DNA of 64,000 nt, taken from positions 8,878-72,877 of the forward strand of contig CAYHYM010000001.1 in assembly GCA_964360965.1 (NCBI GenBank), in the 5' to 3' direction. This stretch comes from an uncultured Gammaproteobacteria bacterium (GTDB lineage: Bacteria; Patescibacteriota; Microgenomatia; Daviesbacterales; UBA10151). Below are positions 13,288-41,930 of the stretch, in pieces (the stretch's first letter is position 1; each line of letters opens with the position of its first letter). A program made the position numbers and the translations under genes. The notes beneath the pieces are model-generated. The model was not told the origin of the DNA and ran no database searches. It saw nothing but the letters and a program-made list of their open reading frames with translations.

Positions 13288-13310
13288 ATTCTTGTTTAAT
13301 TATAACATAA

Positions 13311-14275: not shown

Positions 14276-14309
14276 AATGATTTATCATTGCCATAATCTG
14301 GATTGATTG

Positions 14310-15164: not shown

Positions 15165-15178
15165 TATAAACCCTAAAA

Positions 15179-24572: not shown

Positions 24573-27104
24573 ATGAACATTGGTAAAATTCAACCGGCTC
24601 CCATAATTGAAGAGATGCAGCGGTCCTATTTGGACTATGCTATGTCCGTCATAGTCTCTCGGGCCTTACCTGATGTCAGAGACGGCCTAAAACCGGTGCA
24701 GCGACGCATTATCTATGCTATGCATGAGCAAGGATTGCACCATACCTCAAGATATCAAAAGTCTGCAGCAGTTGTTGGTGAAGTTTTAAAGAATTTTCAT
24801 CCCCACGGAGATACCCCTGTCTATGAAGCCATGGTGAGAATGGCCCAAAATTTTTCCATGAGATATATGCTGGTTGACGGCCAAGGAAATTTTGGCTCCA
24901 TTGATGGAGATTCACCGGCAGCCATGCGATATACTGAGGTAAAATTATCCTCAATATCAGAAGAATTACTGCGTGATATCAACAAAAACACTGTTGATTT
25001 TACGGATAATTATTCAGGAACAACTCAAGAGCCCGTCCTGTTGCCATCCGTTATACCCAATCTGCTGCTTAATGGAGCCTCAGGTATAGCTGTTGGCATG
25101 GCCACCCAAATTCCACCCCATAATTTGGGGGAAGTATGTGATGCCTTGGTCTATATGATAGAACACCCAACCAGAACTGTCATTGCGACCCCGAATGAAA
25201 CAAGGGGGGATAACAATATATTTTCCTCTGATGCCACTGTTGAAAATTTAGTCCAGTTCATCAAAGGTCCGGATTTCCCCACAGGCGCTGCTATTTTTGA
25301 TCAAACAGAAATTATGGCAGCTTATGCAACTGGTAAAGGCAGGATTGTCATGCGCGCCAGAGCAGAAGTTGAGGAGACAGAGGCGGGCTCGCCTCGCTCC
25401 GCGGGCGGAGCGGGAAAAATGCAAATCATAGTCACGGAAATCCCATATCAGGTTAATAAATCCACTCTTATCTCAAGGATGGCCGAGCTGGTCAAAGATA
25501 AAAAAATAGAGGGGATTGCGGATTTGCGCGATGAGTCTGACAGAACACAGATGGTGCGAATTGTGATCGATCTGAAAAGAGACGGGAAACCCCAATCAGT
25601 TCTAAATAATTTATACAAACATACTACTATGCAGTCTGTTTTTAATGTCAATATAGTAGGCCTTCTTGATGGAGTGCCGCATCTTTTAAACCTAAAACAA
25701 ATTCTGCAGGAGTTTGTCAACCACCGCCAGAGGATTGTCAAAAGACGTTCCGAATTTGAACTGGCTGAGGCTAAAGCCAGGGAACACATCCTGCTGGGAC
25801 TGACAATTGCCGTTGATCAAATAGACGATGTCATTGAAACAATTAAAAAGAGCAAAGACGTTGAGATGGCCAAAGTTAATTTAATGGCCAAATTTAAACT
25901 AACAGAGATTCAATCGGTGGCTATTTTGGATATGCAGCTGCGGCGTTTGGCAGCATTGGAAAGGCAAAAAATTGAGGATGAGCTAAAAATGGTTAAAGAA
26001 ACCATCGCCTATCTTGAGAATCTGCTGATCTCGCCTGAAAAAATCTTAAGAGTTATAAAAGATGAGCTGGTAAAAATTAAGCAAAAATATGCAGACCCGC
26101 GACGCACCAAAGTTTACAAACAAAAAGTGGGGGAATTTAATGAGGAAGATCTGGTAGCCAATGAGGTGACAATTGTCACCATTACAGAAGGAGGTTATAT
26201 CAAACGTCAGTCTCCCGCCTCTTTCAGGACTCAGGCCAGGGGAGGAAAAGGGGTTTTGGGCATTTCCACCAAAGAAGAAGATGCGGTTTCCCATATTTTT
26301 TATACCCAGACTCACGATAATATTTTATTTTTTACCAGTATTGGAAAAGTTTATCAGGTTAAAGTTTGGGATATCCCGGAAACACAACGGGCTGCCAGGG
26401 GCCAAGCTGTGGTTAATTTAATAAATATTGAGCAAAGGGAAAAAGTCACTGCTGTTTTAACCAGAAGAGAGAAAGGAGAGGCGGCCAAATACTTCTTTAT
26501 GTGTACCTCCCGTGGTACTGTCAAAAAAACCGCTCTTTCAGAGTATGCCCATATTAGAAAGAACGGGTTGTTGGCCATAAAACTGGGAGCGGGTGATAAC
26601 CTGGGCTGGGTTTACCCAACAACAGGATTAGATGATGTGATAATTGTGTCCCAAAAAGGCAAATCTATCAGATTTTCTGAAAAGGGGGTTAAGCCAACAC
26701 ACAGGGATACTTCAGGCGTCAGGGGTATCAGACTTACAAAAGATGATCAGGTGGTATCTTTAAATATTATTGGGGATGGACAGGGAGAGCTGCTGGTTAT
26801 TATGGAAAACGGTTTGGGTAAAAAGACCAATATTTCATCCTGGAAAAGACAAGGCAGAGGAGGACAGGGAGTGAAGGCTGCCCAGGTTACTGCCAAAACA
26901 GGGAATATTGTCACAGCATCTTTAGTTGATAAAACCATGGATACGCTGATTTTAACATCAACCAAAGGCCAACTGATAAAAATGGACCTTAAACAGGTGC
27001 CAACGCTGCAAAGACAAACTCAGGGAGTAATTTTGATGAGAGCAAAAGACGGGGAAAAAGTGGCAGCAGCCACAGTGGTATCATCCAAGGAGAAGGTAGA
27101 ATGA
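24573..27104 (+). CDS. gyrA: DNA gyrase subunit A
   Basis: [16 protein letters not shown], active-site region AAMRYTE, C-terminal beta-pinwheel repeats. 843 aa. Confidence 0.95.
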
Positions 27105-27310
27105 AAAAAGAAAAGTTTATATCTAATATAGCTATTATTTATTTTTTTGCAGGTTTTGTTTTTGCCATAATTTTTGCCTTTTATTATCATTGGCCGGCTC
27201 TGTCATTTTTATCCCCAGGATTTTTTGTGGTGGCATTTTCCTGGCCCCTGCAGATTGGAGGATTTGGGGGAGACCTGATAAATTATGGCCTGTCAGGTAA
27301 ACCAATTTGA
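27101..27310 (+). CDS. small hypothetical membrane protein
   Basis: Two hydrophobic helices. Start overlaps the gyrA stop. Confidence 0.25.
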
Positions 27311-27332: not shown

Positions 27333-27626
27333 CTATTTGCTGCCCAGAAACTTTTGAGCAAAATCATTTAAAAAATTTGATCCCCGGGAAATAACAAATC
27401 CTGACAAAAAAGTATCCACAAAAGGAATACTGCTTTCAATTCCCAAAATAAGGGAGAAAAAATTAATATGATAGGCAAATGCTAAAAACATCCCTGTTCC
27501 CAAACAGAAAAGGGGTAGATAGGGCTTCAAGGTAGTCACATTACCAAAAATATACTCCACGACAGCCTCATTGATGGCAGTAAATATAAAAACCGTGGCC
27601 AAGGGTGATAAATTTAATCCTTCCAA
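27333..27626 (-). CDS. small hypothetical membrane protein (3 predicted TM) downstream of the amidase
   Basis: Hydrophobic 97-aa ORF directly following the amidase gene on the same strand. Confidence 0.3.
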   Translation of the reverse strand: MEGLNLSPLATVFIFTAINEAVVEYIFGNVTTLKPYLPLFCLGTGMFLAFAYHINFFSLILGIESSIPFVDTFLSGFVISRGSNFLNDFAQKFLGSK

Positions 27627-27627
27627 T

Positions 27628-28569
27628 TTAGAAAGTTACCTTCCTGGCAGGAAAAAGCAGTTTATAAATTGAGATTATAACATCAATTAAAGTAAAGGTG
27701 GAATCAGGGTGTTCTTTTTGGGGCAGCGCTACCAGCGGAGGTTCTTTTAAAGAAGCCTTAAAGGCTAAAATCTGGGCCTCCAAGTTTTCTATCTGGCTTT
27801 TTTGGGAATCAATAATGGCCTGCATGCTTGATATTTGATTTTGTAAATTTTGCCCCTCTTTTCCCATTTTTAAAAGGGACTGATGTTCATCTGAGCTTAC
27901 CATGGTTAAAAGTACTTGTTCTAATCTGGCAGGGGAGTTGGTGTGAGCCGAAAGTCCAGCTTGATCCGGCTCTCTGCCTAAAACAGTTCTATAATAGCTC
28001 GCGATTACATCGCGTCGCTCTTGTAGCTGCCTTTCATCCATACCACTCACAATCATCTGTTTCCAGTTTAACCAGCCATCACCCGGACAGGCTGTTGATT
28101 GACCGGGCAGTTCTTTGTGGCCTTTGATACTATCCCAAGAAATAAAGCCCACTAGATCCCCAAAATTATTAATAAAAAAATCACAAAGTTTTCTGGCTGA
28201 GTCAAGCTGATCAGCAGTTGGAATTTTACCTGCCATAAAATTACCAATTAAACAAATGCCAATCACTTGATCATTTAAATTGGCCACATTGGCCCGGGCA
28301 GTTGATAAATCACCCACATAATAAACCGTGCCATCTTTACCGATTAAAAAATGATAGCCAATTCCACCCCAGCCATTTGTTTGGATATGAAAACGGGCAA
28401 TATCCAAAGGAGTTTGACTGTCCAAGGCAGCAGTGTGGTGGATGGCCAGGTATTTAACCTGAGAAGGTGTCCTGGTCCAGCTCCAATTATAGGCATCACC
28501 GGGCAGAGTATCTCTTAAATCTATAAATTTATTACCTAAAGAGGGAATGGTTAAATCAATCCTGGCCAC
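27628..28569 (-). CDS. N-acetylmuramoyl-L-alanine amidase (Amidase_2/PGRP domain) with coiled-coil and hydrophobic C-terminus
   Basis: AIHHTAALDSQTPLDIARFHIQTNGWGGIGYHFLIGKDG...GICLIGNF matches the PGRP amidase_2 signature. Confidence 0.75.
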   Translation of the reverse strand: MARIDLTIPSLGNKFIDLRDTLPGDAYNWSWTRTPSQVKYLAIHHTAALDSQTPLDIARFHIQTNGWGGIGYHFLIGKDGTVYYVGDLSTARANVANLNDQVIGICLIGNFMAGKIPTADQLDSARKLCDFFINNFGDLVGFISWDSIKGHKELPGQSTACPGDGWLNWKQMIVSGMDERQLQERRDVIASYYRTVLGREPDQAGLSAHTNSPARLEQVLLTMVSSDEHQSLLKMGKEGQNLQNQISSMQAIIDSQKSQIENLEAQILAFKASLKEPPLVALPQKEHPDSTFTLIDVIISIYKLLFPARKVTF

Positions 28570-28608
28570 GTTGTGGCTATACTAACAAAGACCAATTTCT
28601 CTTGTCAA

Positions 28609-29529
28609 TCAACGATTATTCCCCGAATGAAATGCCTTATGCACATCCTTTAGATGAGCATTGGTGACATGGGTGTATATTTGGGTGGTTTGGATGTTGG
28701 AGTGACCTAACATTTCCTGCACTGAGCGGATATCGGCTCCATTTATCAGTAAATCCGTGGCAAAAGAATGCCTTAAGGTATGGGGGGTGGCTTTGACAGG
28801 AAGACCTAAAGCTTTAACATATTTTTCCACAATTCGCTCAATTGAGCGGGAAGTAAGCCTCATAGCCTCACCGCTGTTTTGGGCATCTATCTTACCCTGA
28901 TACCTGATAAAAAGAGGCTTGAGGGTATCTTTTCTTGCCATCAAGTATTTTTCCAAAAACTCAACTGCAGAATCAGATAAAAAAACTATCCTTTCTTTTC
29001 CACCTTTACCAACAACTCCAAACTCGCGTCTGTTAAGATTTATGGTGTCCCTGTTTAAAGAAGCCAGTTCAGAAACCCGCAGTCCTGTTGAAAAAAGCGT
29101 CTCCAGAATGGCCCTATCCCTTATGCCATCTTTTCTAGATGTATTCGGAGCATCAAGCAGTTGCTTAAGCGAAGCATCATCCAAAATCTTCAAAGGCCTT
29201 GGTTCTGCCTCTCCCAGTTCCACTTTTTCAGGGGATAAAGTTTGGATATCTTGGCGGGCTAAATATCTTAAAAATGCCCGCAGAGCTATCATAAAATAGT
29301 TTTGGGTGACTCTTTTTAAGGATCTTTTGGTCTTTGGATCCTGAAATCTTGCCAGATACAACCTGTATTTTCTGACCAAATTCAAATCTATATCTTTGGG
29401 ATCAATATCATTCGAAAACTGCAAAAATCGTTTTAGATAATGATCGTAGTTTTTAATGGTTAACTGAGAGGCATTCCTCTCCAGCTCCAGATATTCTAAG
29501 AAATCAGTAATTAAGGCAGATAGGTTCAT
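28609..29529 (-). CDS. xerC: tyrosine site-specific recombinase XerC/XerD-like
   Basis: R..HxxR..Y catalytic region HTLRHSFATDLLINGADIRSVQEMLGHSNIQTTQIYTHV. ATG overlaps the upstream gene stop as ATGA (29527-29531). Confidence 0.8.
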   Translation of the reverse strand: MNLSALITDFLEYLELERNASQLTIKNYDHYLKRFLQFSNDIDPKDIDLNLVRKYRLYLARFQDPKTKRSLKRVTQNYFMIALRAFLRYLARQDIQTLSPEKVELGEAEPRPLKILDDASLKQLLDAPNTSRKDGIRDRAILETLFSTGLRVSELASLNRDTINLNRREFGVVGKGGKERIVFLSDSAVEFLEKYLMARKDTLKPLFIRYQGKIDAQNSGEAMRLTSRSIERIVEKYVKALGLPVKATPHTLRHSFATDLLINGADIRSVQEMLGHSNIQTTQIYTHVTNAHLKDVHKAFHSGNNR

Positions 29530-30236
29530 CACAAAAGTGCCAGGCCTAAAATTCCCAGGATGGTTAAGATTGAACCTACTATGGCCAGGGCAAAGGTAAA
29601 CTGCTCTGTTCCTGCCGGGGGAAGAGCCTTTGGCGGCCCAACATAGGGAGCAGTAGTCCCTGAGGGTGTGGCCACACCAACACCAACTCCTGCTCCGGGC
29701 GCGCCAGCAGCGCAAGTGCCAGTCCCTATAGTATAATTTCCATTAACCACTGAGTTTAACACATCAGCCACTATATCCCCCCTTTGCACCACATTAGAAT
29801 CTGAAGTTTTACTTTTATCATTGGAGTCAAAGTCAAATTTAATCTGACTGGCGCCAGTTGGAGCATCATCTTTAACTTTAAACTTAATGCTGGCCAAAGT
29901 TCCAGAACCCAAAAAACCAGTCGTGACAGAGGCCAAGCCTGAAATGGAAACTTTACCGTTGGACTCATCAATGCTATTTCCCGGGTAATCTGCATAAATT
30001 GATCCCACTGACATGGATGAAGCGCTAAACCTGGAAGTATCATATAAAACTATGGCATCAGTGCCATCAGTTTGAACCCCGCCAGTATTTAAAACAATAT
30101 CCAATGAGAAGGTACAGCTTTTATTAAAGGTACCCGAGGAAGGGGACAAAGACAGGGTGGCAGTCTGGGCAAAGGCAACCGGGCTTAATATAATTGTTAT
30201 AAAAATTATAAAAATTATAATTACTATAGTCTTCAT
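29529..30236 (-). CDS. secreted cohesin-like domain protein with C-terminal LPPAG-TM anchor-like tail
   Basis: Signal peptide. Cohesin-like beta-sandwich segment ...AIVLYDTSRF...GTLASIKFKVKDDAPTG. C-terminus KALPPAGTEQFTFALAIVGSILTILGILGLALL. Confidence 0.5.
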   Translation of the reverse strand: MKTIVIIIFIIFITIILSPVAFAQTATLSLSPSSGTFNKSCTFSLDIVLNTGGVQTDGTDAIVLYDTSRFSASSMSVGSIYADYPGNSIDESNGKVSISGLASVTTGFLGSGTLASIKFKVKDDAPTGASQIKFDFDSNDKSKTSDSNVVQRGDIVADVLNSVVNGNYTIGTGTCAAGAPGAGVGVGVATPSGTTAPYVGPPKALPPAGTEQFTFALAIVGSILTILGILGLALL

Positions 30237-30787
30237 GGCAGAATATTTATCTCCAACTGATTAACTTTTTCCAAAATATCTGCTCCAGTGCCTGTTTCAG
30301 TCACATTAGTGTCCCCGGTTTTACCTGGGGTAAAGTCCAATGAAACTTTGGTTAATCCTACAGCTTTGGCCACAAATGTTACTGCAGCAAACTGACCCTC
30401 CGGTATAACTCCGCCTTGCTGGGTGGTAATACCGGAGACAGATACTCTTCCCAAAGTCGCGTCAACCTTATTTTGCGGATAATCGGAAAAAATGGTCCCC
30501 AATACTGTTGGCTGGGCTGTTAATAGTTTTGGGTCATAGGTAATTATCAAGTCCACCCCATCAACTTTTTTGGCCGAGGCGACATTTATAGTAACCAAAA
30601 TTCTCTCCCTCACCCTAAGCTGACTTTTATCAGCGGAGAGGCTGATGGAGGTTTGACTTGTAACAGGTACGGCAACAGTTGATGGAGGAGTTGGTTTAAC
30701 CAAAGACCATCCGGCCCACAAAACTTCTGCCAAAATTACCATACCCAGCACTATAAAAATGTTTCTTTTCACCAGATATTTTTGCAT
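30233..30787 (-). CDS. secreted cohesin-like domain protein
   Basis: Signal/anchor. Cohesin-like ...VDGVDLIITYDPKLLTA...QFAAVTFVAKAVGLTKVSLDF (compare FRYDPNVLEI and VFAKIRATVKS in clostridial cohesins). Confidence 0.5.
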   Translation of the reverse strand: MQKYLVKRNIFIVLGMVILAEVLWAGWSLVKPTPPSTVAVPVTSQTSISLSADKSQLRVRERILVTINVASAKKVDGVDLIITYDPKLLTAQPTVLGTIFSDYPQNKVDATLGRVSVSGITTQQGGVIPEGQFAAVTFVAKAVGLTKVSLDFTPGKTGDTNVTETGTGADILEKVNQLEINILP

Positions 30788-30806
30788 ACCTTTAGATTAA
30801 ACTTTC

Positions 30807-31109
30807 TCAACTGCCGAAGTCAAGGGCGGGCAGTTGAATTAAAGTCGCACCGGGTGAGGGGGAAGGTGATGGACTAACTTGTGCTGACGGAGAAGAGGAG
30901 GGGGCTGTTTCCTTGGTAATTTTTAATTTTACATTAGAGTTGGTAGTTTCTGTGATGACCTGACCTGTATCATTCACAAATTCCACCTTGGGGATAAAGG
31001 CTGCCCGAGGCCTAAAAATTTGGGTCTGACGTACCAAATACAAAGTAGCCGGAATAGCCACCAAGATAATTACAAAGCCTATTAAAATTAATGTTTGTCT
31101 TTTAGTCAT
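30807..31109 (-). CDS. truncated 5' paralog (100 aa) of the 31143-32411 gene; leader plus Pro-Ser linker only
   Basis: First 67 aa nearly identical to the next gene. Contains a 76-nt tract 100% identical to 32215-32291. Confidence 0.4.
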   Translation of the reverse strand: MTKRQTLILIGFVIILVAIPATLYLVRQTQIFRPRAAFIPKVEFVNDTGQVITETTNSNVKLKITKETAPSSSPSAQVSPSPSPSPGATLIQLPALDFGS

Positions 31110-31142
31110 TAACTTACCCCCTTATAGATTAACCGACTCTTT

Positions 31143-32411
31143 CTACAGTGTCAACCTTTTACTTGTTCTCATCACATTATCAAAGTCTCCATGGATATCC
31201 CACCAATTTCTCAATTTTTTACCCTGATATGTTTTAGTGTTATTTTTTCCCGGCATGTTTTGCAGCATCCAAATTTGATAATTCAGTGCAGAGTTATTAT
31301 TTATCGGATCTATATCCTGACAACCCCAAATTTGACAACTAATATCTGTCAGCTGACCTAAAGTATCCGGATTCCAATCCAGACAATCAGATTTTTGGGG
31401 GGTTGGATTATTCCTGTCATATTCTGATCTGGCATTTGGTGGATTGTGCGCTGAACCGCACCTGCCATTCACCCCCAAAGTCTGCGGGAAATTTGGTCCC
31501 TGGAATTTATCTCTGTATAAACTTTTATCAACAGCATCAATTTCTGCCTCTATTTGATGTCCCCAAGACTCCAAAGCTTCTGCAGTAAACCTTTGATAAT
31601 TAAATGTGTACACACGATAAGTATTTGCACAAATTGGCATATCATTCTCTCCGCCGCTATTTGAGATATCCCCAAACGGCCCTGACATTTTTGATTCATA
31701 AATATCAAGATAGGGGTGACTGTCTGCTTTTGGCGAACCCTGATAACCCCAAAGCCATACCTCTTTTACCCCCTTACTGTCAACATAGTCGCAAATGTTG
31801 TGAGTTTGCATGATGCCCCGGTAGTCAGGGTAGGTTGGTTTATCCAACCGGGCTTTAATCGGTACTGCCTGCAGGTATTCTTTGGTATCAACGATTGTAT
31901 AACGGAGAACCGGTTTTGCATTCGGATCTTTATATCCCAAATATGTGCTGGCTTTCTCCAAAGATATTTTGAGCTGGCTGGTCACATCATCAGTTCTTTT
32001 TTTGATCAGTTCATATGAATCACCAATATCTCCTGTCACAGTAATATCAATACACTGCTGTTGGGGATTTAAGGAACAGGGAACAGAAGGAAAATATTTA
32101 ATCAGCAACACATTTATATTAAAACTTGTATCCAAGCCTGGTTGGAAAGTTGGAGAAGGGGATGGAGATGAAATTTGTGTGGGAGAAGGACTAGGAAAAG
32201 TTGTCACTGCTTCTTTGGTAATTTTTAATTTTACATTAGAGTTGGTAGTTTCTGTGATGACCTGACCTGTATCATTCACAAATTCCACCTTTGGAATAAA
32301 AGCTGCTCTGGGTTTAAAAATCTGAGTCTGCCTGACCAGATACATGGTGGCAGGAATGGAAATAAGAATAATGACGAAGCCTATGAGAATAAGTATTTGT
32401 TTTTTCGTCAC
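31143..32411 (-). CDS. secreted protein: conserved leader, Pro-Ser linker, C-terminal Cys-containing domain of unknown function
   Basis: Leader MTKKQILILIGFVIILISIPATMYLVRQTQIFKPRAA, linker SPSPTQISSPSPSPT, then a 300-aa domain with no assignable family. Confidence 0.5.
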   Translation of the reverse strand: MTKKQILILIGFVIILISIPATMYLVRQTQIFKPRAAFIPKVEFVNDTGQVITETTNSNVKLKITKEAVTTFPSPSPTQISSPSPSPTFQPGLDTSFNINVLLIKYFPSVPCSLNPQQQCIDITVTGDIGDSYELIKKRTDDVTSQLKISLEKASTYLGYKDPNAKPVLRYTIVDTKEYLQAVPIKARLDKPTYPDYRGIMQTHNICDYVDSKGVKEVWLWGYQGSPKADSHPYLDIYESKMSGPFGDISNSGGENDMPICANTYRVYTFNYQRFTAEALESWGHQIEAEIDAVDKSLYRDKFQGPNFPQTLGVNGRCGSAHNPPNARSEYDRNNPTPQKSDCLDWNPDTLGQLTDISCQIWGCQDIDPINNNSALNYQIWMLQNMPGKNNTKTYQGKKLRNWWDIHGDFDNVMRTSKRLTL

Positions 32412-32428
32412 TTTTCACTTTTCCCTTA

Positions 32429-34306
32429 TCACTTTAACAATATGCTGGCCGTTTGAGGAGGTATTGGTCCCCAAGCGCCACTTTCAAAAAACTGCACATA
32501 CGCTGACTTTAATCCTGGTCCACCTGTTAAAGTCAGATCCAAAGTGAAAACTGTTGCTGTACCCATATCACTTTGGGCTAAAACAGTGGCAAAATTAGGA
32601 TCAAAGGAAACCCTGAAAGGCAGCAGGCCTGAAGGCACAGCAGAGGCGGTGGCTGTGGGGGAGGCTGAAGAAGTTGCCACCGGCGAGGCAGATGCAGTTG
32701 CCACAGGTGATGCGGCAGGACCACCTACAGGGGGTTCTTTTGGTAGAGGGGGAGAGAACTGCTCATCAGATTGGTTGATATTCTGCCTCATACAGGCATA
32801 ATCAATGGAATTAATCCTGCCATCCCCATTAAAATCACCTGTTTTGACCACGTCTTTTACCAAACTCCACTGGCGGGTTAATTCTGCCCGATCAAAAGCA
32901 TTTATTTTTCCATCAGCCTTGATGGCTGGAGCAATATCACCAACCAGCAAAGTTACAGCCTCCAAATTCTTGGTACCGGTTTTGGTTTCAAATTCCACTT
33001 TTTTAGAGAGGGTATTGGGTGCTTTAATAACCAGGGCATACTTTTTATTTTTCTCCAGCTTTGGTGTAAAACCTGTCACTTTGCCATCTTTGTCCAGTTT
33101 GACTGTTTGTTCCAGAACCGGCTCCGGGTTTTCCGACTCGGCGCTGACCAGTACATTGGCAAAAATCTTCACTAACACATTATCCACTGCCAAATTCCCG
33201 CCAGCGCTCTTACATTGGGTTAGAGCGGCAAAGGTGACAGTGGTAGTGCCCACCGAACAGTCGGCTCTGGCAGTTTTGCTGTCATCACGGGTCAGCTCCA
33301 CATCATTTTTGCCTTCCAATTTTTTATCCAAAATAGCTGTCACCACCCCTGTTGATTCATTCCAACTCAAAACTTCCGCATCAGTTCCACCCACCTTAAC
33401 TTTGCCTTTACCTTTGGGGCCAATATTGGTACCGGTGATGGTGATGCTGGTACCGGATCCGGAAATGGCATGAGTACAGCTGGCCTCAGAAATAGCAGGA
33501 TTGGGGATAAAGTTGATCATCCGATCTCTTCTTGAAATAACACCAGTATTTGATATAAAGAGGGCATGAATAGTATTTCTGCCAGGTTTGGTTAAGGTAT
33601 GGGGTATCAGCTTGGGATGAGTATCATAAAGTTGAGCGCCTTTATCTGCGCAAGAGGTAGCAGTAATTGGCCCTTTATCAGATATAAAGAAACAGGCAGT
33701 AGAAACAGGTGGAGTTGGGGATGGTGATGGGCTAGGTGATGGACTGGGACTTGGTGAAGGTGAAGGAGACGGTGAAGGAGACGGAGCCTGGTTGACTGTC
33801 AGGGCAGAAGGGGAAACAGACAGGGTTTCCAATGATAAATCTGATTTAACATTTTTCAGCAAGGAGGTATTCAGTATATCAATGCCATACTGATTGGGGG
33901 ATTGGGATGTAAACACAAGTTCTACAAACGAGGTAGTAACTGCCGCAGGCAATGTAAAGCTGGCTGCGGTGTCCAATTCTCCAACCAGTTTAATCTGGCC
34001 GTTTAAATTGATCTGGGCCAGATTTTGGTCTCCATCGCCCTCCAATACATCAGATTTTTTGCCAACTTTGTAGGTAATGCTTTTCAGCTTAGCCTTAACT
34101 GGATCAAATTTAACATTAATTTGATACATCCTTATCTTTAAGGCGGCAGTTGAAGTAAGCTGAGCATTGACTGTGAAATCCTGCCCTGCCGGCGCTACCA
34201 AGGCAGGCGGATTAAATGAGGAAGAAACTGTCTGGCCAAATGCGGCCCTGGGCAAGCCTAGTGTAGCAAGTAACAATAAAATAATAACAGTAAATTTTCT
34301 TTTCAT
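32429..34306 (-). CDS. large secreted protein with cohesin-like modules, (SP)n linker, Ig-like region and dockerin-like repeat
   Basis: Signal peptide ending PRAAFGQ. (SP)x20 linker. Dockerin-like loop DFNGDGRINSIDYACM plus KADGKINAFDRAEL. Confidence 0.55.
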   Translation of the reverse strand: MKRKFTVIILLLLATLGLPRAAFGQTVSSSFNPPALVAPAGQDFTVNAQLTSTAALKIRMYQINVKFDPVKAKLKSITYKVGKKSDVLEGDGDQNLAQINLNGQIKLVGELDTAASFTLPAAVTTSFVELVFTSQSPNQYGIDILNTSLLKNVKSDLSLETLSVSPSALTVNQAPSPSPSPSPSPSPSPSPSPSPSPTPPVSTACFFISDKGPITATSCADKGAQLYDTHPKLIPHTLTKPGRNTIHALFISNTGVISRRDRMINFIPNPAISEASCTHAISGSGTSITITGTNIGPKGKGKVKVGGTDAEVLSWNESTGVVTAILDKKLEGKNDVELTRDDSKTARADCSVGTTTVTFAALTQCKSAGGNLAVDNVLVKIFANVLVSAESENPEPVLEQTVKLDKDGKVTGFTPKLEKNKKYALVIKAPNTLSKKVEFETKTGTKNLEAVTLLVGDIAPAIKADGKINAFDRAELTRQWSLVKDVVKTGDFNGDGRINSIDYACMRQNINQSDEQFSPPLPKEPPVGGPAASPVATASASPVATSSASPTATASAVPSGLLPFRVSFDPNFATVLAQSDMGTATVFTLDLTLTGGPGLKSAYVQFFESGAWGPIPPQTASILLK

Positions 34307-34311
34307 ACTTT

Positions 34312-35238
34312 TTAACGCTTCCAGATATTCAAATCATCAGCGTCTATTTGACCGTCACCGTCAAAATCAGGGTTAACAGAGACAGGTATTTTACCTAAGT
34401 TTACCGCAGTCAGCCAGTAAAGATAATCATTTTCATCTTTCACTCCGTTACCATCAGCATCACCTAGGGTTCTTGATGGTCTGTTGCACCAGCTATTTTT
34501 ATCCTGGGTAGAGGGCACAATGTTGTAGATAGTTGCCGGAAGAGAACATTGTATCGGACCGCTTCCAGGAGGTAGTCCGTAATCTACCCCTGTCAGTTTG
34601 GTAAACTGGCAAGGAGAGGAGCAGCTGTTATCGGCTTGACACCCACATCCTGTCACAGGCGGGAGCGGAGAAGGCGAAGGAGAAACAGCAGGCCCTGTCA
34701 CCATATATCTCCCTTCAATGTTTTCTGCAGTTATTAAAGTTGTTTCCGCTCCGGAGGCCACCAGTTCAAAGGCAGGGGCAAACCTGACAGTTGATACCCC
34801 TCCTGCCCTGGCCTTAAACTTGAGCGTTCCCAAAATCAGAACTCCTGAAGAGATGGGATCTTTCGACTTTCTTACAGCAGTAAAGCGGAACTGGCCCAAG
34901 GGATCATCCACAGTATTTCTTAAAGTGTCAAAACTTGAAAGAGCAGGGTCAAATGTGACAAGCTGTAAGATATTTGTGTTGTAGGCAAGCTGTATGTTTA
35001 CTCCGGTAATATCCTGGTTTCGTGCATTCATCTTCAGCTGCACCTCAAATTCTTCTCCCGTATTTTTGCTGGATTCAGCAGGAGAGAGAGACAGTGTTAC
35101 TGCGCCAGTAGGCACCGCAGCCCTACTTCTTAGGTCCTGAATCTGCCTGACCAGATATAAAGTTACTGGTATGGCCACAATCAGAATAGCCACTACCATA
35201 AACGGTATAATTTTTATCAATTTATCTCTATCTATCAT
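34312..35238 (-). CDS. cohesin-like + Pro-Ser linker + type I dockerin protein
   Basis: Leader ...VTLYLVRQIQDLRSRAA. Cohesin-like core. C-terminal dockerin pair DADGNGVKDENDYLYWL and DFDGDGQIDADDLNIWK, with Ca-loop D/N at positions 1, 3, 5, 9, 12. Confidence 0.6.
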   Translation of the reverse strand: MIDRDKLIKIIPFMVVAILIVAIPVTLYLVRQIQDLRSRAAVPTGAVTLSLSPAESSKNTGEEFEVQLKMNARNQDITGVNIQLAYNTNILQLVTFDPALSSFDTLRNTVDDPLGQFRFTAVRKSKDPISSGVLILGTLKFKARAGGVSTVRFAPAFELVASGAETTLITAENIEGRYMVTGPAVSPSPSPLPPVTGCGCQADNSCSSPCQFTKLTGVDYGLPPGSGPIQCSLPATIYNIVPSTQDKNSWCNRPSRTLGDADGNGVKDENDYLYWLTAVNLGKIPVSVNPDFDGDGQIDADDLNIWKR

Positions 35239-36809
35239 AGGTAACCATTTTTCCAGATACTGAAATCCACGGTATTGATTGAGTCGTCGCAGTTGAAGTC
35301 TGCCTTTTTACTCTTGGTTAAGGAATGTAACTCCCTGAACCAGATGTTAAAGTCTGAAAGATCCACATCACCATCTTTGTCAGCATCACCCTGGGAGGGG
35401 ACACAAACCGCTGGTGTTGGGGAAGGGGAAGGAGAGGGAGAAGGGGAGGGGGAAACTGTAGGTTGAGGAGCTACACAAAAACCTCTATTTGGTTGATTGG
35501 CTTCACAAACAGGTTTTTGGGGGTCAACACAAAAAGAAGCATCTGTTTGACATTGACTGCCATGACATATCAGACAATCCCTAGCCTTGGAGGCTGAGAC
35601 GCATTGGGCATCAATACATTTATCTTTAAATTCCCTAAAATCAATTGACACCTTTCTTCTACATCTGTCATCCTCATCATCTTTGGTGGCTGCAAAATTA
35701 TCACAATTAGGATCTTCTGTCTGTGTTTTGGGGTTATTTCTACAAACTCCACACTGGCCAAAGTTATAGGTATTTAGGATGGGGGTAGTGGTAGTTACAC
35801 AGGCAAAACAAGATTGGCCTGAAACAGCACAAGTCAGCTGGCTGGCTGGAACCCCTTGATAAGCCGGGGTATCAGAAGATGAAAGGCAACCAATAGTACC
35901 GGCTGGTTGGCACTGATATGTCCTTTCAGCTCCAAAAAGATTGCCTGCGGATACTCCCACAGGACAAGTGGGAACACCTAGGGCCCCACCGGGTAGGGTG
36001 GTAAAAACAATCAGACTAAGGTTACACTGCCCACCAAATTCCTGACTTTTATCATTAAACATTCTCCACCTGAAGGGATATGTCCCAGCAGTTGTGGGCC
36101 CAATTGTGACATTAAAGTCCTTTTGATTGCCTGGTTCAATTGTGCTACCTACACTAATATTGGTTTTATCTGGCTTGAATGCCAACTCAGCACCTGAACC
36201 ACCAGTGAATCTTAAGGAATAATTTGATTGCCAGTTGTTAGTAACACCCCCAGTAGGGTCTTGAGTATTTCTTAAAATCATGGTGATGTTATAAGATTTG
36301 TTAATCACAACAATACCAGGGTGTTTATCATAAGGTTGGCCATCAATGGTGACGTCTGTACAGTCTGCCCTGTCTGCACCACCCACACCTACATTGCCAG
36401 ATGAAGGTGAAGGTGGAGGTGGTGGTGGTGAGGCTGCAGCGGGACACTGCTTTGGTTCTGTACAACTGGAAGCATCACACTGCGGTTGATCACCTGGATC
36501 ATTAGGATCGGCCACACCGTCACTATTGATGTCCAGGGTGTTATCCGTATAAGTGGCAAAAGCCGTTAGATAACAACCGTTGGCATCTACAGATCCACAA
36601 CTACCAACCGGCTGACCAACTTGTGGCTGGTTTGGCCTATTACACGGGAAAAGACCATCTGGGGCAGGACTCATAATCTCTGCTGCCTTTGATTTAAGTT
36701 GAGTTTGTTGTTGGACCAGTCTTACTCCCACCAGAAGCCCCACAGCCAAAACCCCCAAAATCAACAGGGCAATGATATTTCTTTTAGATAATAATTTTGT
36801 TGCTTCCAT
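35235..36809 (-). CDS. Cys-rich secreted protein with Pro-Ser linker and C-terminal dockerin
   Basis: Leader ...VRLVQQQTQLKSKAA. PPPPPPSPSS and PSPSPSPSPSPTP linkers. Dockerin pair DADKDGDVDLSDFNIWF and DFNCDDSINTVDFSIWK. Confidence 0.55.
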   Translation of the reverse strand: MEATKLLSKRNIIALLILGVLAVGLLVGVRLVQQQTQLKSKAAEIMSPAPDGLFPCNRPNQPQVGQPVGSCGSVDANGCYLTAFATYTDNTLDINSDGVADPNDPGDQPQCDASSCTEPKQCPAAASPPPPPPSPSSGNVGVGGADRADCTDVTIDGQPYDKHPGIVVINKSYNITMILRNTQDPTGGVTNNWQSNYSLRFTGGSGAELAFKPDKTNISVGSTIEPGNQKDFNVTIGPTTAGTYPFRWRMFNDKSQEFGGQCNLSLIVFTTLPGGALGVPTCPVGVSAGNLFGAERTYQCQPAGTIGCLSSSDTPAYQGVPASQLTCAVSGQSCFACVTTTTPILNTYNFGQCGVCRNNPKTQTEDPNCDNFAATKDDEDDRCRRKVSIDFREFKDKCIDAQCVSASKARDCLICHGSQCQTDASFCVDPQKPVCEANQPNRGFCVAPQPTVSPSPSPSPSPSPTPAVCVPSQGDADKDGDVDLSDFNIWFRELHSLTKSKKADFNCDDSINTVDFSIWKNGYL

Positions 36810-36812
36810 ATT

Positions 36813-37211
36813 TTATATTCCAGGTGATGGTGATGGACTAGGTGATGGACTGGGACTTGGTGAAGGTGAAGGGCTTGGACTGGGGCTGGGAGACAGTGAT
36901 GGAGAGGGGGATGGGGATGGTGGGAGTGGCAAATTAATTCCTTCCTCAGATTTTAAGAAAGGTGAATCCAACACCACATTTATTTCAGAATCTGTAGATG
37001 TACATTCACCAACAGCCGGACAATTAACACCTGATTTTCCTTCTATTGCTCTAAAGGAGATCGGATCACCACCGGCTGCTTTGGATTTTAATTGCTGTTG
37101 GGTTTGGACCAGTTTAATCCCCAAAGGAATGGCCACAATCATAATGGCCAAAATCAAAAATGAAATGATGTTCTTCCTGGAAAAAAGACTGTTGTCTGAA
37201 GAATAATCCAT
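36813..37211 (-). CDS. short leader + (PS)n-only protein (possible truncated paralog)
   Basis: Leader ...GIKLVQTQQQLKSKAA, then (SP)x18 to the stop. The plus-strand ORF 36772-37206 is its antisense image. Confidence 0.4.
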   Translation of the reverse strand: MDYSSDNSLFSRKNIISFLILAIMIVAIPLGIKLVQTQQQLKSKAAGGDPISFRAIEGKSGVNCPAVGECTSTDSEINVVLDSPFLKSEEGINLPLPPSPSPSPSLSPSPSPSPSPSPSPSPSPSPSPSPGI

Positions 37212-37244
37212 TACCCTTACTCTAAAGCAAAAGATTGAAGTTTG

Positions 37245-38720
37245 TCAATCTGTTTTTAACTTGGTCAAATCTACAATCACAAAATCATGGGTCTGATGGA
37301 TAATCTTATATTTTTCCATGACTTGCTTTGTCTGATCATCAAGAGCCACAGACACATAATGGGTGGCCCCCAGCTTAATCAGCTCGGTCACACTCAGGTA
37401 AACAGAAGACCAGCCAGGTCGATCCAGCTGGTATAAAAAAGCGGTATTTCTCTCAAATGGAGCAATCACCCTGGCTTCTTTGGGTAAAATTTCTCTGGCC
37501 ACATCTCCAGCTTTCATAATCTCACCATGATTAATCTGATAAAAACCCCTCACCTGATACCAGCCAAAAGCAAAGGTTAGAGCAATCAAAGCTAAGGTAG
37601 CAGGAATGGTGATCCAGGCAGTCAACCATCTGCCGGAGGCAAAAATTAGAAAATCTACTGAGCGGGCCATAAACACAGCCAAAATCGGCACCAGGGGAAT
37701 CTGATAATAATCATGTTCCACATTGCCGCGAGCCAAAATCAGCACATATAAACTTAAACCCAGCAGCCACCAGTGGAAAAACCAGGTTTGACCTTGTTTC
37801 GGCTTCAAAAATACTCCCAGGGTAGCCAGGAAAAAACCAGCCACAGTTAAAATTTCCCTGCCCAGTCTTTCTGCAATAATCCAATGTAAGAAAGCTCCTT
37901 TGTAGCGGATGTTGTCACCATTAAAAAGCCAGGCGGCAGAAGGGATGCCTTCAGGATATTGCAGCATCCATAAACGCCATGATAACAGAGGTACAGTGGT
38001 CAAAGCAACCAGCAGATACAGCTTAAGGTTAGTCAGGGCCCGCAATCCCCGGTAATGGAAAGATAAATATGCCATCGGCATCAATAGATAAAGCGTGTAT
38101 GGTTTGGTGAGAATGGCCACATTCAAAAACAACACAGTCAAAACAAAAAAAAACCAGGTTTCTTTTTCCAAAAACCTGATAAAAAAATAAAGGGCTGACA
38201 AAGAGGCAAAGATCATCATCGGCTCCGGCATAAACACTCTGGAGAAATAAATATTATACGGTAAAAAGGCCAAAAAGAGAGCTGAGATAAGAGCAACCCT
38301 GATCCCTAAAAATTTTTTGACCAGAAGATAAAGGAGAATAATTGACAAAAGTGAGAAAACAACTGACATTTGCCGGCCATAGATTACCTCCACCTGTCCC
38401 ATGATCAGATATACCACTGCCACCAGACCGCTATAGATGGGAAATTCCACAAAGCGGAAACGCTGCGGGTTGGGACGGGAATCGTGGGTAACAGGAGCCA
38501 TGTCATCATATTTAGGATGCAAAAAATCAAAGCCTTCTTTGATAAAATTTCTGGACACAGCTGCCGTGTCAACCTGCCTCCAGGAATGCCAGTCACCCAG
38601 GGGAATGTTGATCCGGTACTGGCGGATCCAAAAGGCCCCAATTAAAATGATTATCAAAAAGAGCAGGGGACTGGAAAAAACCTTTTTAAGTACCATAAAG
38701 CCATTATAGCAGCAAGACAA
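37245..38720 (-). CDS. GT-C fold glycosyltransferase (PMT_2 / ArnT-like, family 39/83-type), polytopic
   Basis: About 12 TM helices. First extracytoplasmic loop carries acidic YDD...PQRFRFVEFPIYSG. Topology and size typical of protein O-mannosyl/ArnT-like transferases. Confidence 0.55.
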   Translation of the reverse strand: MSCCYNGFMVLKKVFSSPLLFLIIILIGAFWIRQYRINIPLGDWHSWRQVDTAAVSRNFIKEGFDFLHPKYDDMAPVTHDSRPNPQRFRFVEFPIYSGLVAVVYLIMGQVEVIYGRQMSVVFSLLSIILLYLLVKKFLGIRVALISALFLAFLPYNIYFSRVFMPEPMMIFASLSALYFFIRFLEKETWFFFVLTVLFLNVAILTKPYTLYLLMPMAYLSFHYRGLRALTNLKLYLLVALTTVPLLSWRLWMLQYPEGIPSAAWLFNGDNIRYKGAFLHWIIAERLGREILTVAGFFLATLGVFLKPKQGQTWFFHWWLLGLSLYVLILARGNVEHDYYQIPLVPILAVFMARSVDFLIFASGRWLTAWITIPATLALIALTFAFGWYQVRGFYQINHGEIMKAGDVAREILPKEARVIAPFERNTAFLYQLDRPGWSSVYLSVTELIKLGATHYVSVALDDQTKQVMEKYKIIHQTHDFVIVDLTKLKTD

Positions 38721-39788
38721 ATTAGACAGTATCTTGCAAAATCATACATTAAACAAAAACGCCGTAATTAATATTGTCCGACAAGGACCAGTATATCTGT
38801 GAGTCAGTATATCAGTGTTTCAGTGGATTAAAAATATTTGATAATTTGATAATATGGAAGTGTGATAAAAGATGTGAATATAAACTTTTGTCAAAAAGAA
38901 TAAACTCCTTGCACAAATACTGGCGCTTTTAACACCGATACACAGATATACTGAAAGATACACTGAAACTCCGAGCCCCTAGAAGGGCCTAAAAACGGCT
39001 GGTTAGGGGAGGGCCGCTATCTGCCATCATCTAGTTTAGGCTGTCAGGAAGGGCCAAATTGGTAGTTAGTAGTTTGTAGTTGGTAGTTGGTAGAAAACAG
39101 CAAATTTTTGAAGGGAAATATGAGAAATTAGGCACACAAAAATGCTTGATAAAAAACTTATGCCTTTTATAATTAAATTTATCCTGAGCAAGCCTGAAGG
39201 ACTCCTCCCTAATCCCACTTCTCTGACATCGCATAACCATGATTGTCCGACATTATTATATTTGGGGAAGAATGCGGAAAAGAGAGAATAGCCTTGGTCT
39301 TCTGATACGTGAGTAAAGAATCTCTAGATTACTCTCATGATCCTTCGCTAACGCTTGGGATGACAACTAGAAGAGCACCTCTCCTCCAAGAGGCTTCGGG
39401 TATTCTATGTAAGAAAGAATAAGCAATTATATGCACTAACTGACAGATTACTTTTAATCTTCAAGCGTCCATCCTTTTGCCGTAGGCAAAAGTGTACAGA
39501 GCTAATAACGAGAGTAAGATCGTGTGAGTCCTTAGAGTACGGAGTGCTATTGTGACAACGATCACAATAGTAGCGCAGTACTCGGGGGCTCGTAGTGCAC
39601 GAACATCGTGAGAGCACGAAGAGACCCATAGTTTTCCACATTTGAACTTGGCAAATATATAAAACTATATCACCTATAGTTTTCACGAAATATCTCATAA
39701 TTTTTCACAGTTCGACTTCGCTCACTGCAGGCACTCCTCTACTTCCAATTTGTCTTAACAATCCAATTCTCCATTGTCAATTGATTCT

Positions 39789-41101: not shown

Positions 41102-41143
41102 AACAGTTTTCCAATTCTAACACAGCCATTCATTAGTAGTTTA

Positions 41144-41159
41144 GACACCTGGGGGGTGG
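41144..41159. repeat. REP-like element GACACCTGGGGGGTGG 3' of RAYT-2 (inverted partner at 41889-41904)
   Basis: The 14-mer ACACCTGGGGGGTG occurs here and as a reverse complement at 41889-41904. The pair brackets only the RAYT gene. Confidence 0.65.
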
Positions 41160-41179
41160 ATTAGGCAGGCATGTAGGGA

Positions 41180-41848: not shown

Positions 41849-41870
41849 AAAGTCATAATAGATTAATTAT

Positions 41871-41930
41871 CCCTGGGTGTCAACCTGAGACACCCCCCAG
41901 GTGTTTATAGGTGTTTATACAGGTGTTTAT
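41871..41930. repeat. REP-like hairpin (GGGTGTC aacctga GACACCC) plus three tandem AGGTGTTTAT decamers 5' of RAYT-2
   Basis: Seen directly: CCCTGGGTGTCAACCTGAGACACCCCCCAGGTGTTTATAGGTGTTTATACAGGTGTTTAT. Confidence 0.7.

Follow-up and report, generated by a model that had tools for sequence, protein, structure and literature searches.

Introduction

The recombinase XerS of streptococci and lactococci has been described as forming, together with its target difSL, one module (PMC5357621), and XerA is a recombinase that acts alone, on a site of 28 bp (PMC5357621). For the candidate phyla, Smyshlyaev et al. (bioRxiv 10.1101/542381) report a “Cand” subgroup of simple tyrosine recombinases, which lies near Xer and occurs in candidate phyla only; the passages found on it by keyword mention no target site. 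No description of a dif-like site of candidate-phyla bacteria was found in the searchable literature.

Here, we analyse a window of 64,000 nt, to which all coordinates refer, from a genome of Candidatus Daviesbacteria (CPR/Patescibacteria), in which a cohesin gene is followed by a recombinase, an amidase and a small membrane protein, in the order and at the coordinates given by the original prediction. The related loci used for comparison are xer-centred stretches of at most 20 kb from other genomes, and the dif sequences of E. coli, B. subtilis and Frankia were taken from PMC3025954. In our reading, which we consider probable, the recombinase is the housekeeping Xer of Candidatus Daviesbacteria, provided with a 28-bp target site, and the amidase and the 97-aa membrane protein form a separate, phage-type unit. 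This locus offers a testable chromosome-dimer resolution site for the candidate-phyla bacteria, which are largely uncultured; in the adjacency of the recombinase to surface genes itself there is little at stake, as the enzyme looks ordinary.

The Recombinase Gene

The gene xer (28609..29529, minus strand; ATG at 29529-29527, stop codon at 28611-28609) encodes a 306-aa Xer-type tyrosine recombinase, identified by Pfam and NCBIfam matches, alignment and synteny. Its product contains the domains Phage_integrase (PF00589, E=2e-43) and SAM-like N-domain (PF02899, E=2e-12), its nearest solved relative is E. coli XerD (E=4e-38), and in a full-length alignment with XerD (1a0p) the six catalytic residues (R, K, H-x-x-R, H and Y) are all kept. 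When compared with the NCBIfam models, the protein scores 246 bits with XerC (cutoff 335) and 243 bits with XerD (cutoff 330), under the cutoff in both cases, 130 bits with XerS, and 223 bits with XerA, which is the sole Xer equivalog cutoff that is passed (220). The recombinase probably belongs to the Xer-like group reported from candidate phyla only.

Orthologues of xer are found in the same syntenic position in 57 related loci, with 60-85% identity (median 78%), and Xer is better conserved than GyrA in 38 of 42 of them. The gene is in place and syntenic both with and without the amidase and its 97-aa neighbour, and the same gene backbone is present in three loci devoid of cohesin genes (L030, L053 and L054). 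Judging from these comparisons, xer behaves as a core, vertically inherited Xer, and the earlier view that this is not a simple housekeeping xerC finds no support in them. The most likely function is that of an ordinary chromosome-dimer resolvase, not of a switch for surface variation. It is the only tyrosine recombinase gene in the window, where no gene for a partner recombinase was found; a second Xer-like paralogue, xer2, is present in 12 related loci.

The Surface-Protein Cluster and its Junction With xer

The gene preceding xer, coh235 (29529..30236, minus strand; Pfam Cohesin, E=1e-7), closes a cluster of surface-protein genes; its 235-aa product has a hydrophobic signal at the N-terminus and, at the C-terminus, an LPPAG motif with a hydrophobic tail behind it. 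In 46 loci, the gene immediately preceding xer is a homologue of coh235 (median identity 53%). The remaining block (30233..38720, minus strand), delimited by ORF calls, domain matches and comparison of loci, contains cohesin, dockerin and TIG-domain proteins, proteins with Ser/Pro linkers, and gt491, a 491-aa multi-pass membrane protein that is found at its position only in this genome.

The two genes had been thought to be coupled through an ATGA overlap; the minus strand instead reads ...TTG TGA TG AAC..., so that coh235 stops and xer starts within the sequence TGATG (29527..29531, minus strand, read as 29531-29527), one base being common to both codons. Such an overlap is not unusual in this window: of 58 pairs of co-directional neighbours in the raw ORF calls, 14 overlap and a further 16 are separated by 0-20 nt. 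Across 47 related loci the junction before xer ranges from -4 to +133 nt (7 at 0 or below, 27 at 1-30 nt), and a true ATGA is present in four of them. The overlap of xer with the last surface gene reflects the tight gene packing of a very small genome. In this genome, xer would probably be expressed by read-through from the cluster, with which it is presumably co-transcribed, and re-initiation at TGATG.

A recombinase adjoining, and probably co-transcribed with, paralogous surface genes, in a linkage that is conserved across Daviesbacteria, recalls the phase variation of the vsp/vpma type, in which the enzyme would invert or shuffle surface genes to vary the cell surface. The structure of the cluster makes this explanation very improbable. 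All its genes are on the minus strand, and inverted repeats are no better than expected by chance (at most 29 nt, 76%). The cluster had been described as a recombining family with identical tracts; in fact, its longest repeat is 204 nt with 82% identity (30905-31108 versus 32207-32410), short of identity, and the others are low-complexity stretches in the Ser/Pro linkers and short segments of 60-80% identity over shared N-terminal regions. Furthermore, a position-weight scan from 29.5 to 38.7 kb found no Xer-type sites inside the cluster, repeated or inverted, the best match being -14 bits against 24 bits for the site located outside it and described below. The relatives show a fixed rather than a variable gene order, with coh625-coh184-coh235-xer constant in about 45 species-level loci, and lineages without the cluster have an xer orthologous to this recombinase. 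The antigenic variation initially proposed is therefore not borne out, and there is no evidence that the recombinase acts on the surface genes.

An integron-like cassette array was also considered and rejected, as the cluster, with intergenic gaps from -4 to 35 nt, contains no attC-type imperfect inverted repeats.

A Candidate dif-Type Site Upstream of xer

A candidate dif-type core site with 11-6-11 layout, ATGTCGGACAA TCATGG TTATGCGATGT (39226..39253, minus strand), is present in a gene-free gap of 1.07 kb that follows ruvC. The site lies 9.7 kb upstream of xer, at the far end of the surface block, and nothing else in the 64 kb scores high in a position-weight scan, in which it reaches 24 bits against -3.1 for the next distinct match and at most -0.7 in shuffled sequences. 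In about 25 related loci the full site occurs in one copy per locus, always upstream of xer and in constant orientation. The consensus of 144 copies of this 28-bp palindrome is ATGTCGCACAAT ATAT CTTTTGCGACGT. The consensus of the Daviesbacteria sites shares with E. coli dif the 11-6-11 layout and 16 of 18 core positions, the core being also similar to the dif of B. subtilis and Frankia; the copy in the window, with its variant centre TCATGG, matches E. coli dif at just 11 of the 18. Both arms are near-identical inverted copies of the XerC-type arm, which suggests the action of one recombinase and not of two.

The association of the site with xer extends beyond Daviesbacteria. In a random set of 120 metagenome contigs with the site, an orthologue of xer from other Patescibacteria (49-56% identity) follows downstream in the same orientation in 12, at a distance of 70-1300 bp in 11 contigs and of 5.5 kb in one, and in several contigs yebC, ruvC or a membrane-protein gene is found upstream of the site. 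When genes are present on both sides (57 metagenome contigs), the flanks are convergent in 39 cases, co-directional in 14 and divergent in 4, and this prevalence of convergent flanks is as expected for a terminus site. In the window, the genes flanking the site are co-directional, the nearest point of convergence (27.3 kb) is 12 kb off, and GC skew tracks the gene strand throughout the 64 kb. In CP066688.1 (820,589 bp), the only one of the loci to come from a complete chromosome, the position of the site is about 665 kb, which would not be opposite the origin if the record begins there. A position at the terminus may be supposed from the single copy per locus and the convergent flanks, and Xer may be supposed to act on this sequence.

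More than 120 viral contigs carry the palindrome as well, immediately behind terS (small terminase subunit) and 0.1-1.3 kb ahead of terL (large subunit), and within the flank covered a recombinase gene accompanies it in only two of 80 viral loci. In this setting the palindrome may have a packaging or regulatory role. The sequence could thus be no recombination site at all, but an operator or promoter for xer and its neighbours, or a phage packaging or regulatory signal found also in chromosomes, the true dif being elsewhere. The position in viral genomes and the scarcity of recombinase genes beside it there are in line with this possibility, as are left-arm copies found 8-150 nt upstream of xer in distant lineages with no full site within 10 kb, and a TTGACA-like box following several of the half-sites. 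We nevertheless judge it unlikely, as there is a single full copy per locus with no regulon-like spread, the majority of the metagenome copies lie between convergent gene ends, where there is nothing to control, and both the 11-6-11 geometry and the core agree with canonical dif. A terminator hairpin is likewise a poor fit, because the sequence is conserved across contigs of 27-68% G+C. If confirmed, the occurrence of the site in viral contigs would point to phages borrowing the recombinase of the host.

Half-Sites and the Interval Between Site and xer

A half-site consisting of the left arm only, TGTCGGACAATAT (38771..38783, minus strand, exact match), is located 470 bp downstream from the full site, shortly before the first gene of the cluster, so that the surface block is placed between the half-site and xer. 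In 1.47 Mb of xer-centred loci, where 11 occurrences would be expected, its core, GTCGNACAAT, is found 97 times, and 93 of these copies are on the strand of xer. The non-coding block between full site and half-site (38784..39225, minus strand) includes islands conserved at the DNA level, with 70-85% identity in more than 20 loci (blastn), and has no match in Rfam. In 11 related loci, xer2 and only the left arm of the site are found at the corresponding spot, which implies that their resolution site must be elsewhere or asymmetric. The lineages with left-arm copies close upstream of xer and no nearby full site are L047, L049, L050, L058, L061-63, L068 and L071.

It can be asked whether Xer has a double role, resolving dimers and also inserting or excising the surface block (and xer2) by recombining the full site with half-sites in direct repeat; on this view, the stretch from the site to xer would serve as a landing pad, like that of elements integrating at dif by means of the host Xer. 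The content of the interval is indeed variable, as it is empty in L030, holds cohesin genes in Daviesbacteria and unrelated genes in L217 and L053-55, and gt491 is unique to this genome. The half-sites are directly oriented and located at block boundaries, 7-9 nt before the ATG of xer in L003, L016 and L052 and 36-41 nt before it in L008, L020 and L030, and the full site is carried by many viral contigs too. On the other hand, half-sites with no right arm are ill suited to recombination, the end of the block next to xer carries no site in the window, the order of the three genes beside xer is kept in about 45 species, and no alternative arrangement was seen among the loci compared. The half-sites may instead be promoters or operators, the TACAAT of the motif ending 7 nt before the ATG of xer in L003 and L052. 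On balance, such a double role seems quite improbable.

The Amidase and the 97-aa Membrane Protein

The amidase gene (27628..28569, minus strand) starts with GTG, 39 bp (28608-28570) after xer, as had been reported, and encodes a 313-aa N-acetylmuramoyl-L-alanine amidase of the PGRP/T7-lysozyme type (Pfam Amidase_2, E=2e-19). The closest solved relatives are PGRPs and phage endolysins, with which the H..H..C zinc-ligand motifs align, and the protein also matches endolysin PHROGs. The N-terminus is hydrophilic and has no signal, as far as a Kyte-Doolittle plot can tell, and beyond the catalytic domain there are a weak DUF4214 match, a coiled coil and a short hydrophobic C-terminal tail; in four loci where the catalytic domain is lost, the coiled coil and tail persist as a separate ORF of 85-100 aa. 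The gap between xer and the amidase is filled by a promoter-like site (28579..28608, minus strand), recognized by consensus scan only and composed of TTGACA, 18 nt and TAGTAT preceded by TG, whose -10 element ends 9 nt ahead of the GTG.

The amidase stop codon (27630-27628) is 1 nt from the TTG start of tm97 (27333..27626, minus strand), which encodes a 97-aa holin-like membrane protein, recognized by its match to phrog_20258 and by its viral gene neighbourhood. Of the three transmembrane segments formerly attributed to it, two correspond to clear hydrophobic stretches and the third is weaker, so that by hydropathy the count is approximate. The only family match, phrog_20258, is shared by all 14 members of the tm97 family (best E=6e-8) and carries no assigned function. 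No Pfam or NCBIfam family and no significant Pfam holin or XhlA match was found, and marginal matches concern Phage_holin_5_2 (one of 14 members, E=0.016) and the holin family phrog_1129 (two of 14). A tblastn search of GenBank phages gave no match to tm97; in the IMG/VR contigs L081, L082 and L083, homologues of 96, 97 and 125 aa come directly after endolysin-type genes of three different catalytic types. This holin-like family is thereby given a lysis-cassette context.

On the other side, gyrA and a conserved 69-aa membrane ORF (24573..27310, plus strand; ORF calls and locus comparison) converge on xer and form the far boundary of a variable gap, which contains the amidase and tm97 in the window and measures from 78 bp to 9.7 kb in relatives, where a P-type ATPase, an AP endonuclease and a PF04020 membrane protein are also found. 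Among 47 related loci, the amidase occurs in 11 and tm97 in 14, always on the gyrA side of the gap; the amidase is directly beside xer only in the window and in L021, and otherwise is 0.5-5.5 kb away or absent.

The whole block, with recombinase, amidase and small membrane protein, could be a decayed prophage whose integrase is the recombinase. Besides the endolysin matches of the amidase and the relatives of tm97 in phage lysis cassettes, the xer product itself matches phage integrase PHROGs. Against this, the recombinase is present in 57 of 57 related loci, regardless of a pair that is far more sporadic, the amidase follows it immediately in only one other locus, it is better conserved than GyrA, and no tRNA gene, no direct-repeat attachment sites and no further phage genes are found near the block, the neighbours being gyrA and the surface genes. 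We find this explanation scarcely credible. Of the proposal of a phage-derived remnant with an endolysin/holin-like pair, only the pair survives, on the basis of the endolysin PHROGs and the viral contigs, and the recombinase, core and syntenic also where the pair is missing, does not belong to it.

Proposed Mechanism and Evolution of the Locus

In the housekeeping reading, which we prefer, Xer monomers would attach to the 28-bp site (39226-39253) at its two inverted 11-bp arms, pair the two copies of the site carried by a dimeric chromosome and swap strands across the 6-bp centre; this exchange would turn the dimer back into monomers before division. The ancestral order was presumably yebC-ruvC-membrane protein-[site]-xer, up to the point of transcriptional convergence with gyrA, an order still observed in other Patescibacteria and in one close relative, L030. 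In Daviesbacteria, a surface-gene block read in the same direction would have come to fill the interval between site and xer, making xer its last, tightly packed gene. The amidase and tm97 would be a separate unit with its own promoter-like site, putatively a phage-type wall hydrolase with its membrane partner, which some Daviesbacteria retain in the variable gap separating xer from gyrA.

A wider scenario, tentative and in our opinion doubtful as a whole, can be drawn by joining these observations. The palindrome would be the dif of Patescibacteria and part of an ancestral single-Xer module; many tailed phages of these bacteria would rely on the Xer of their host for integration or for the resolution of their genomes; and in Daviesbacteria the surface cluster and, in some species, xer2 would have come to occupy a landing pad between site and xer, the presence of xer2 going together with the loss of the right arm of the site.

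Comparison With Known Systems

Phage lysis cassettes combine an endolysin with a holin, as in xhlA-xhlB-xlyA of the B. subtilis element PBSX. The pair described here resembles them in that a signal-less Amidase_2 enzyme is found beside a small multi-pass membrane protein, and the coiled coil and hydrophobic tail of the amidase resemble XhlA in architecture only; unlike in such cassettes, the pair is chromosomal, located in at least 11 species on the side of the gap facing gyrA, and other phage genes are absent. With the vsp/vpma/mba loci of Mycoplasma, the locus shares an Xer-like gene beside a family of surface-protein genes, but not the repeated inverted sites and the mixed gene orientations.

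As regards the single-recombinase systems, the protein passes the NCBIfam cutoff for the XerA of archaea by a small margin (223 versus 220), although the lineage is bacterial and the absolute scores for XerC and XerD are higher. The XerS/difSL module of streptococci and lactococci is comparable to the arrangement in other Patescibacteria, in which the palindrome lies 70-1300 bp upstream of xer in fixed orientation. In this window, by contrast, gene and site are not side by side, but 9.7 kb apart with the surface cluster between them; difSL is of 31 bp with an 11-bp centre, whereas in the candidate site the centre is of 6 bp and the core resembles canonical dif; and the protein scores 130 bits against XerS and about 245 bits against XerC/XerD. 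Taxonomy and scores of the protein fit the description of the “Cand” subgroup.

The system differs from XerC/XerD-dif in that the curated cutoffs are not reached, the arms are near-identical and both of XerC type, and the 64-kb window has no partner gene. It is like XerC/XerD-dif in the closeness of the protein to XerD, in the catalytic residues, in a Daviesbacteria consensus that agrees at 16 of 18 core positions, and in the 11-6-11 layout of the site.

The recombinase gene and its setting

The gene xer (28609-29529, minus strand) was identified as an ORF and by domain match, and encodes a tyrosine recombinase of 306 aa consisting of a phage-integrase catalytic domain and a SAM-like N-domain. 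Its alignment with E. coli XerD extends over the whole protein, and the residues Arg, Lys, His-x-x-Arg, His and Tyr are all present. It scores about 245 bits against each of the XerC and XerD models, under both cutoffs, and just exceeds the cutoff of XerA; a subgroup of tyrosine recombinases near Xer, named ‘Cand’ and found only in candidate phyla, is described in a preprint (10.1101/542381). Among genome loci, those nearest to the window carry the name Candidatus Daviesbacteria, which belongs to the Microgenomates within the candidate phyla radiation. An orthologue occupies the same position in 57 related loci, with a median identity of 78%, and in 38 of 42 loci GyrA is less conserved than the recombinase.

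The conserved backbone of these loci comprises yebC, ruvC, the gene of a 269-aa membrane protein, xer, a variable gap and, convergently, a small ORF with gyrA. In Daviesbacteria, surface-protein genes fill the interval from the membrane-protein gene to xer, and the xer-proximal trio coh625, coh184 and coh235 has a constant order in about 45 loci; the same backbone occurs without cohesin genes in L030, which is closely related by Xer and GyrA, and in L053 and L054, which are more distant. No literature linking Daviesbacteria with cohesins was found.

In the window, coh235 (29529-30236, minus strand; ORF and domain match), encoding a cohesin-domain protein of 235 aa, precedes xer, which is followed after 39 bp by the gene of a 313-aa amidase (27628-28569, minus strand) and, one base further, by tm97 (27333-27626, minus strand), encoding a hydrophobic protein of 97 aa. 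This minus-strand block converges with plus-strand gyrA and a small conserved ORF. In the original prediction, coh235 and xer were translationally coupled through an ATGA overlap. The two genes do overlap, but by one shared base (TGATG, in TTG TGA TG AAC) and not by a four-base ATGA. The overlap is compatible with coupling, but it is not unusual, since tight packing is the rule in the window: of 58 co-directional neighbour pairs, 14 overlap and a further 16 lie at most 20 nt apart (raw ORF calls). Across 47 related loci the spacing at this junction ranges from –4 to +133 nt.

A dif-like palindrome upstream of xer

Counting the short words common to the loci, with conserved genes left out, revealed a palindrome whose window copy, ATGTCGGACAA TCATGG TTATGCGATGT, was located by k-mer comparison and position-weight matrix at 39253-39226 on the minus strand, in a gene-free gap of 1.07 kb past the membrane-protein gene. 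With a matrix built from 144 copies it is the sole strong match in 64 kb (24 bits, versus –3.1 for the next distinct match and at most –0.7 in shuffles). A window scan with known dif sequences at 68% identity or more gave no match, being too strict because the window copy has a variant centre. Copies of the palindrome can be written as GTCGNACAAT-N5-TTNTNCGAC. All related loci that span the gap and lack a second Xer-like gene contain one copy each, which without exception precedes xer and keeps the same orientation. It is 735 bp from xer in L030, and in the complete chromosome CP066688.1 (820,589 bp) the palindrome lies near 664,920 and xer at 669,937-670,872. No paper with this sequence in a relevant context was found in the searchable literature.

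The gap itself (38721-39788) is free of genes though the genome is otherwise compact, and contains blocks conserved at the DNA level in more than 20 loci (approximately 39741-39611 and 39270-38960). A 97-aa ORF within it (39405-39698) has no relatives at the protein level, and a structured RNA was discarded as Rfam gave no match in the gap. An ORF of the Y1 (IS200-like) transposase type lies at 41180-41848 on the minus strand and is bordered on its two sides by an inverted repeat of 43 nt (41142-41184 and 41865-41907); ORFs related to it sit between xer and gyrA in L013, L025 and L032. The palindrome was also considered as a REP/RAYT hairpin, which was rejected because the inverted repeat bordering this transposase is a different one.

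Half-sites and a second Xer-like gene

Taken alone, the left arm (GTCGNACAAT, usually with AT after it) is present in 97 copies where 11 are expected in 1.47 Mb of xer-centred loci, and 93 of these copies share the strand of xer. The window half-site (38783-38771, minus strand) is 470 bp from the full palindrome, just before the first cluster gene. Half-sites are found 7-9 nt from the xer ATG in L003, L016 and L052, 36-41 nt from it in L008, L020 and L030, and 8-150 nt upstream of xer in nine distant lineages; they may be operators, promoters or relics. For the motif TGTCGNACAATAT, a promoter or operator of local effect is a rival explanation; a role as general promoter of leaderless mRNAs was rejected, as there are only 2-3 copies per 20-kb locus, nearly all in the ruvC-xer interval.

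A second Xer-like gene, xer2, is present in 12 related loci (L005, L007, L009, L014, L015, L022, L025, L027, L041, L051, L056 and L057; for example L009:2050-3048) and absent from the window. Its product (about 330 aa) has the full set of catalytic residues and is about 33% identical to that of xer; the gene is placed between the ruvC-side membrane-protein gene and the surface cluster. At the palindrome position, loci with xer2 have the left arm only, whereas those without it have the full palindrome; this partition is perfect (11 loci versus 23), with the two states interleaved on the Xer and GyrA trees. Insertion of xer2 into the palindrome does not explain this pattern, since xer2 lies about 240 nt past the conserved block that follows the palindrome and no right arm is found nearby.

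The surface cluster

The block had been likened to the vsp/vpma-type antigenic variation loci of Mollicutes, in which xer would act on a recombining family of surface-protein genes with identical tracts. The defining features of such loci are all absent: the genes of the cluster all share one strand, inverted repeats do not exceed chance level (at most 29 nt at 76% complementarity) and the matrix scan for Xer-type core sites within the cluster gave no match, the best score being about –14 bits. Nor do identical tracts occur, as the longest direct repeat in the cluster is 204 nt long at 82% identity, the other repeats being low-complexity Ser/Pro linkers and short segments of 60-80% identity over shared N-terminal regions. 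An integron was likewise rejected: attC sites were not found in the cluster, and there is no space for them.

In several proteins of the cluster (29529-37211), a membrane helix at the N terminus precedes LV(R/Q)QTQ..(K/R)(S/P)(K/R)AA, and the coh235 protein ends in LPPAGTEQ and a hydrophobic tail, resembling a sorting signal. At 38711-38703 there is TGCTATAAT, followed after 6 nt by ATG 38696; gt491, the gene of a 491-aa multi-pass membrane protein, may start at this ATG as a leaderless mRNA, instead of at TTG 38720. None of the related loci has a counterpart of gt491 at the same position. Elsewhere in the window (11265-15688), a 55-nt segment is present six times, at 67-85% identity to the reference copy. 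The segment encodes pilin N-termini of the GFTLVELLVV type, pointing to a minus-strand array of type IV pilin-like paralogues.

The amidase and its probable membrane partner

A PGRP/T7-lysozyme-type enzyme with aligned zinc-ligand motifs, the amidase matches endolysin families and has a C-terminal coiled coil with a short hydrophobic tail and no N-terminal signal. The tm97 protein matched no Pfam or NCBIfam family, and all of its 14 relatives match phrog_20258. In three viral contigs, tm97 homologues (96, 97 and 125 aa) lie directly 3′ of endolysin-type genes that represent three catalytic types, namely PG_binding (L081), CHAP (L082) and an Rv2525c-like glycosidase (L083); tblastn against GenBank phages gave no match, the homologues being found only in IMG/VR contigs. 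Endolysin matches and viral lysis contexts thus mark the pair, on sequence grounds, as a phage-type lysis module retained in the chromosome. The amidase would cut peptidoglycan once its membrane partner gives access to the wall, probably as a unit separate from xer; in the window, a promoter-like site occupies the 39 bp between xer and the amidase.

The gap between xer and gyrA varies from 78 bp to 9.7 kb in relatives, and the pair is placed towards its gyrA end; of 47 loci, 11 have the amidase and 14 have tm97. Other occupants of the gap are Y1 transposases or genes for a P-type ATPase, an AP endonuclease or a PF04020 membrane protein. The window and L021 are the only cases in which the amidase is directly 3′ of xer. 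The catalytic domain has been lost in four loci, in which the coiled coil and tail are kept as an ORF of 85-100 aa immediately before the 97-aa gene (L012:8906-9184, L015:14306-14608, L022:14374-14655 and L041:13713-13970). In L005 (11392-12165), the amidase and the C-terminal end of the 97-aa protein are apparently fused. The alternative reading of the block as a phage-derived remnant with an endolysin/holin-like pair is borne out for the pair but not for the recombinase; the pair is no evidence for a phage origin of xer.

Distribution of the palindrome and proposed mechanism

The same 24-nt palindrome occurs in a sample of more than 120 IMG/VR contigs of 27-60% G+C, usually just past terS, the gene of the small terminase subunit, and 0.1-1.3 kb ahead of terL, that of the large one (for example L140:3701-3724, L145:2374-2397, L118:4539-4562 and L111:3338-3361, among L084-L163); in L111 its neighbours are the genes of a tyrosine recombinase and of a small HTH protein. 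It may be that phages make use of the host’s Xer, or that the palindrome serves some other purpose in them. None of the stored viral stretches holds both tm97 and the palindrome.

Public metagenomes yielded at least 120 contigs with the palindrome; in this as in the viral sample, contigs of related lineages are non-independent observations. Among the matches listed, 12 of 120 contigs contain, downstream and with matching orientation, an xer orthologue of Patescibacteria (49-56% identity); it is 5.5 kb away in L217 and 70-1300 bp away in the other 11, and several of these contigs have yebC, ruvC or a membrane-protein gene upstream of the palindrome. A second recurrent context, in many of the listed contigs L204-L323, is past murG and an FtsQ-like or M23-peptidase gene; here the palindrome lies 300-500 nt past the 3′ end, the M23-peptidase being of coiled-coil type (for example L263, L269 and L307). 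Where genes of at least 100 aa stand on either side (57 contigs among the matches listed), they are convergent in 39, co-directional in 14 and divergent in four, with a median gap of about 530 bp. This pattern fits a terminus-located resolution site where genes follow the direction of replication, and does not fit a promoter or operator. An SOS/LexA box is opposed by the convergent-gene setting and the single copy per locus, and a terminator hairpin by a sequence too conserved across contigs of 27-68% G+C.

The gene xer is presumably expressed together with the co-directional surface block, as its last member, and the recombinase would most likely bind both arms of the 28-bp palindrome and resolve chromosome dimers there, at a site that would lie in the terminus region. 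The palindrome was compared with E. coli dif (GGTGCGCATAATGTATATTATGTTAAAT; PMC3025954): the window’s own copy is identical to it at only 11 of 18 core positions, while the Daviesbacteria consensus, ATGTCGCACAA TGTATC TTATGCGACGT, has the same 11-6-11 layout and is identical at 16 of the 18.
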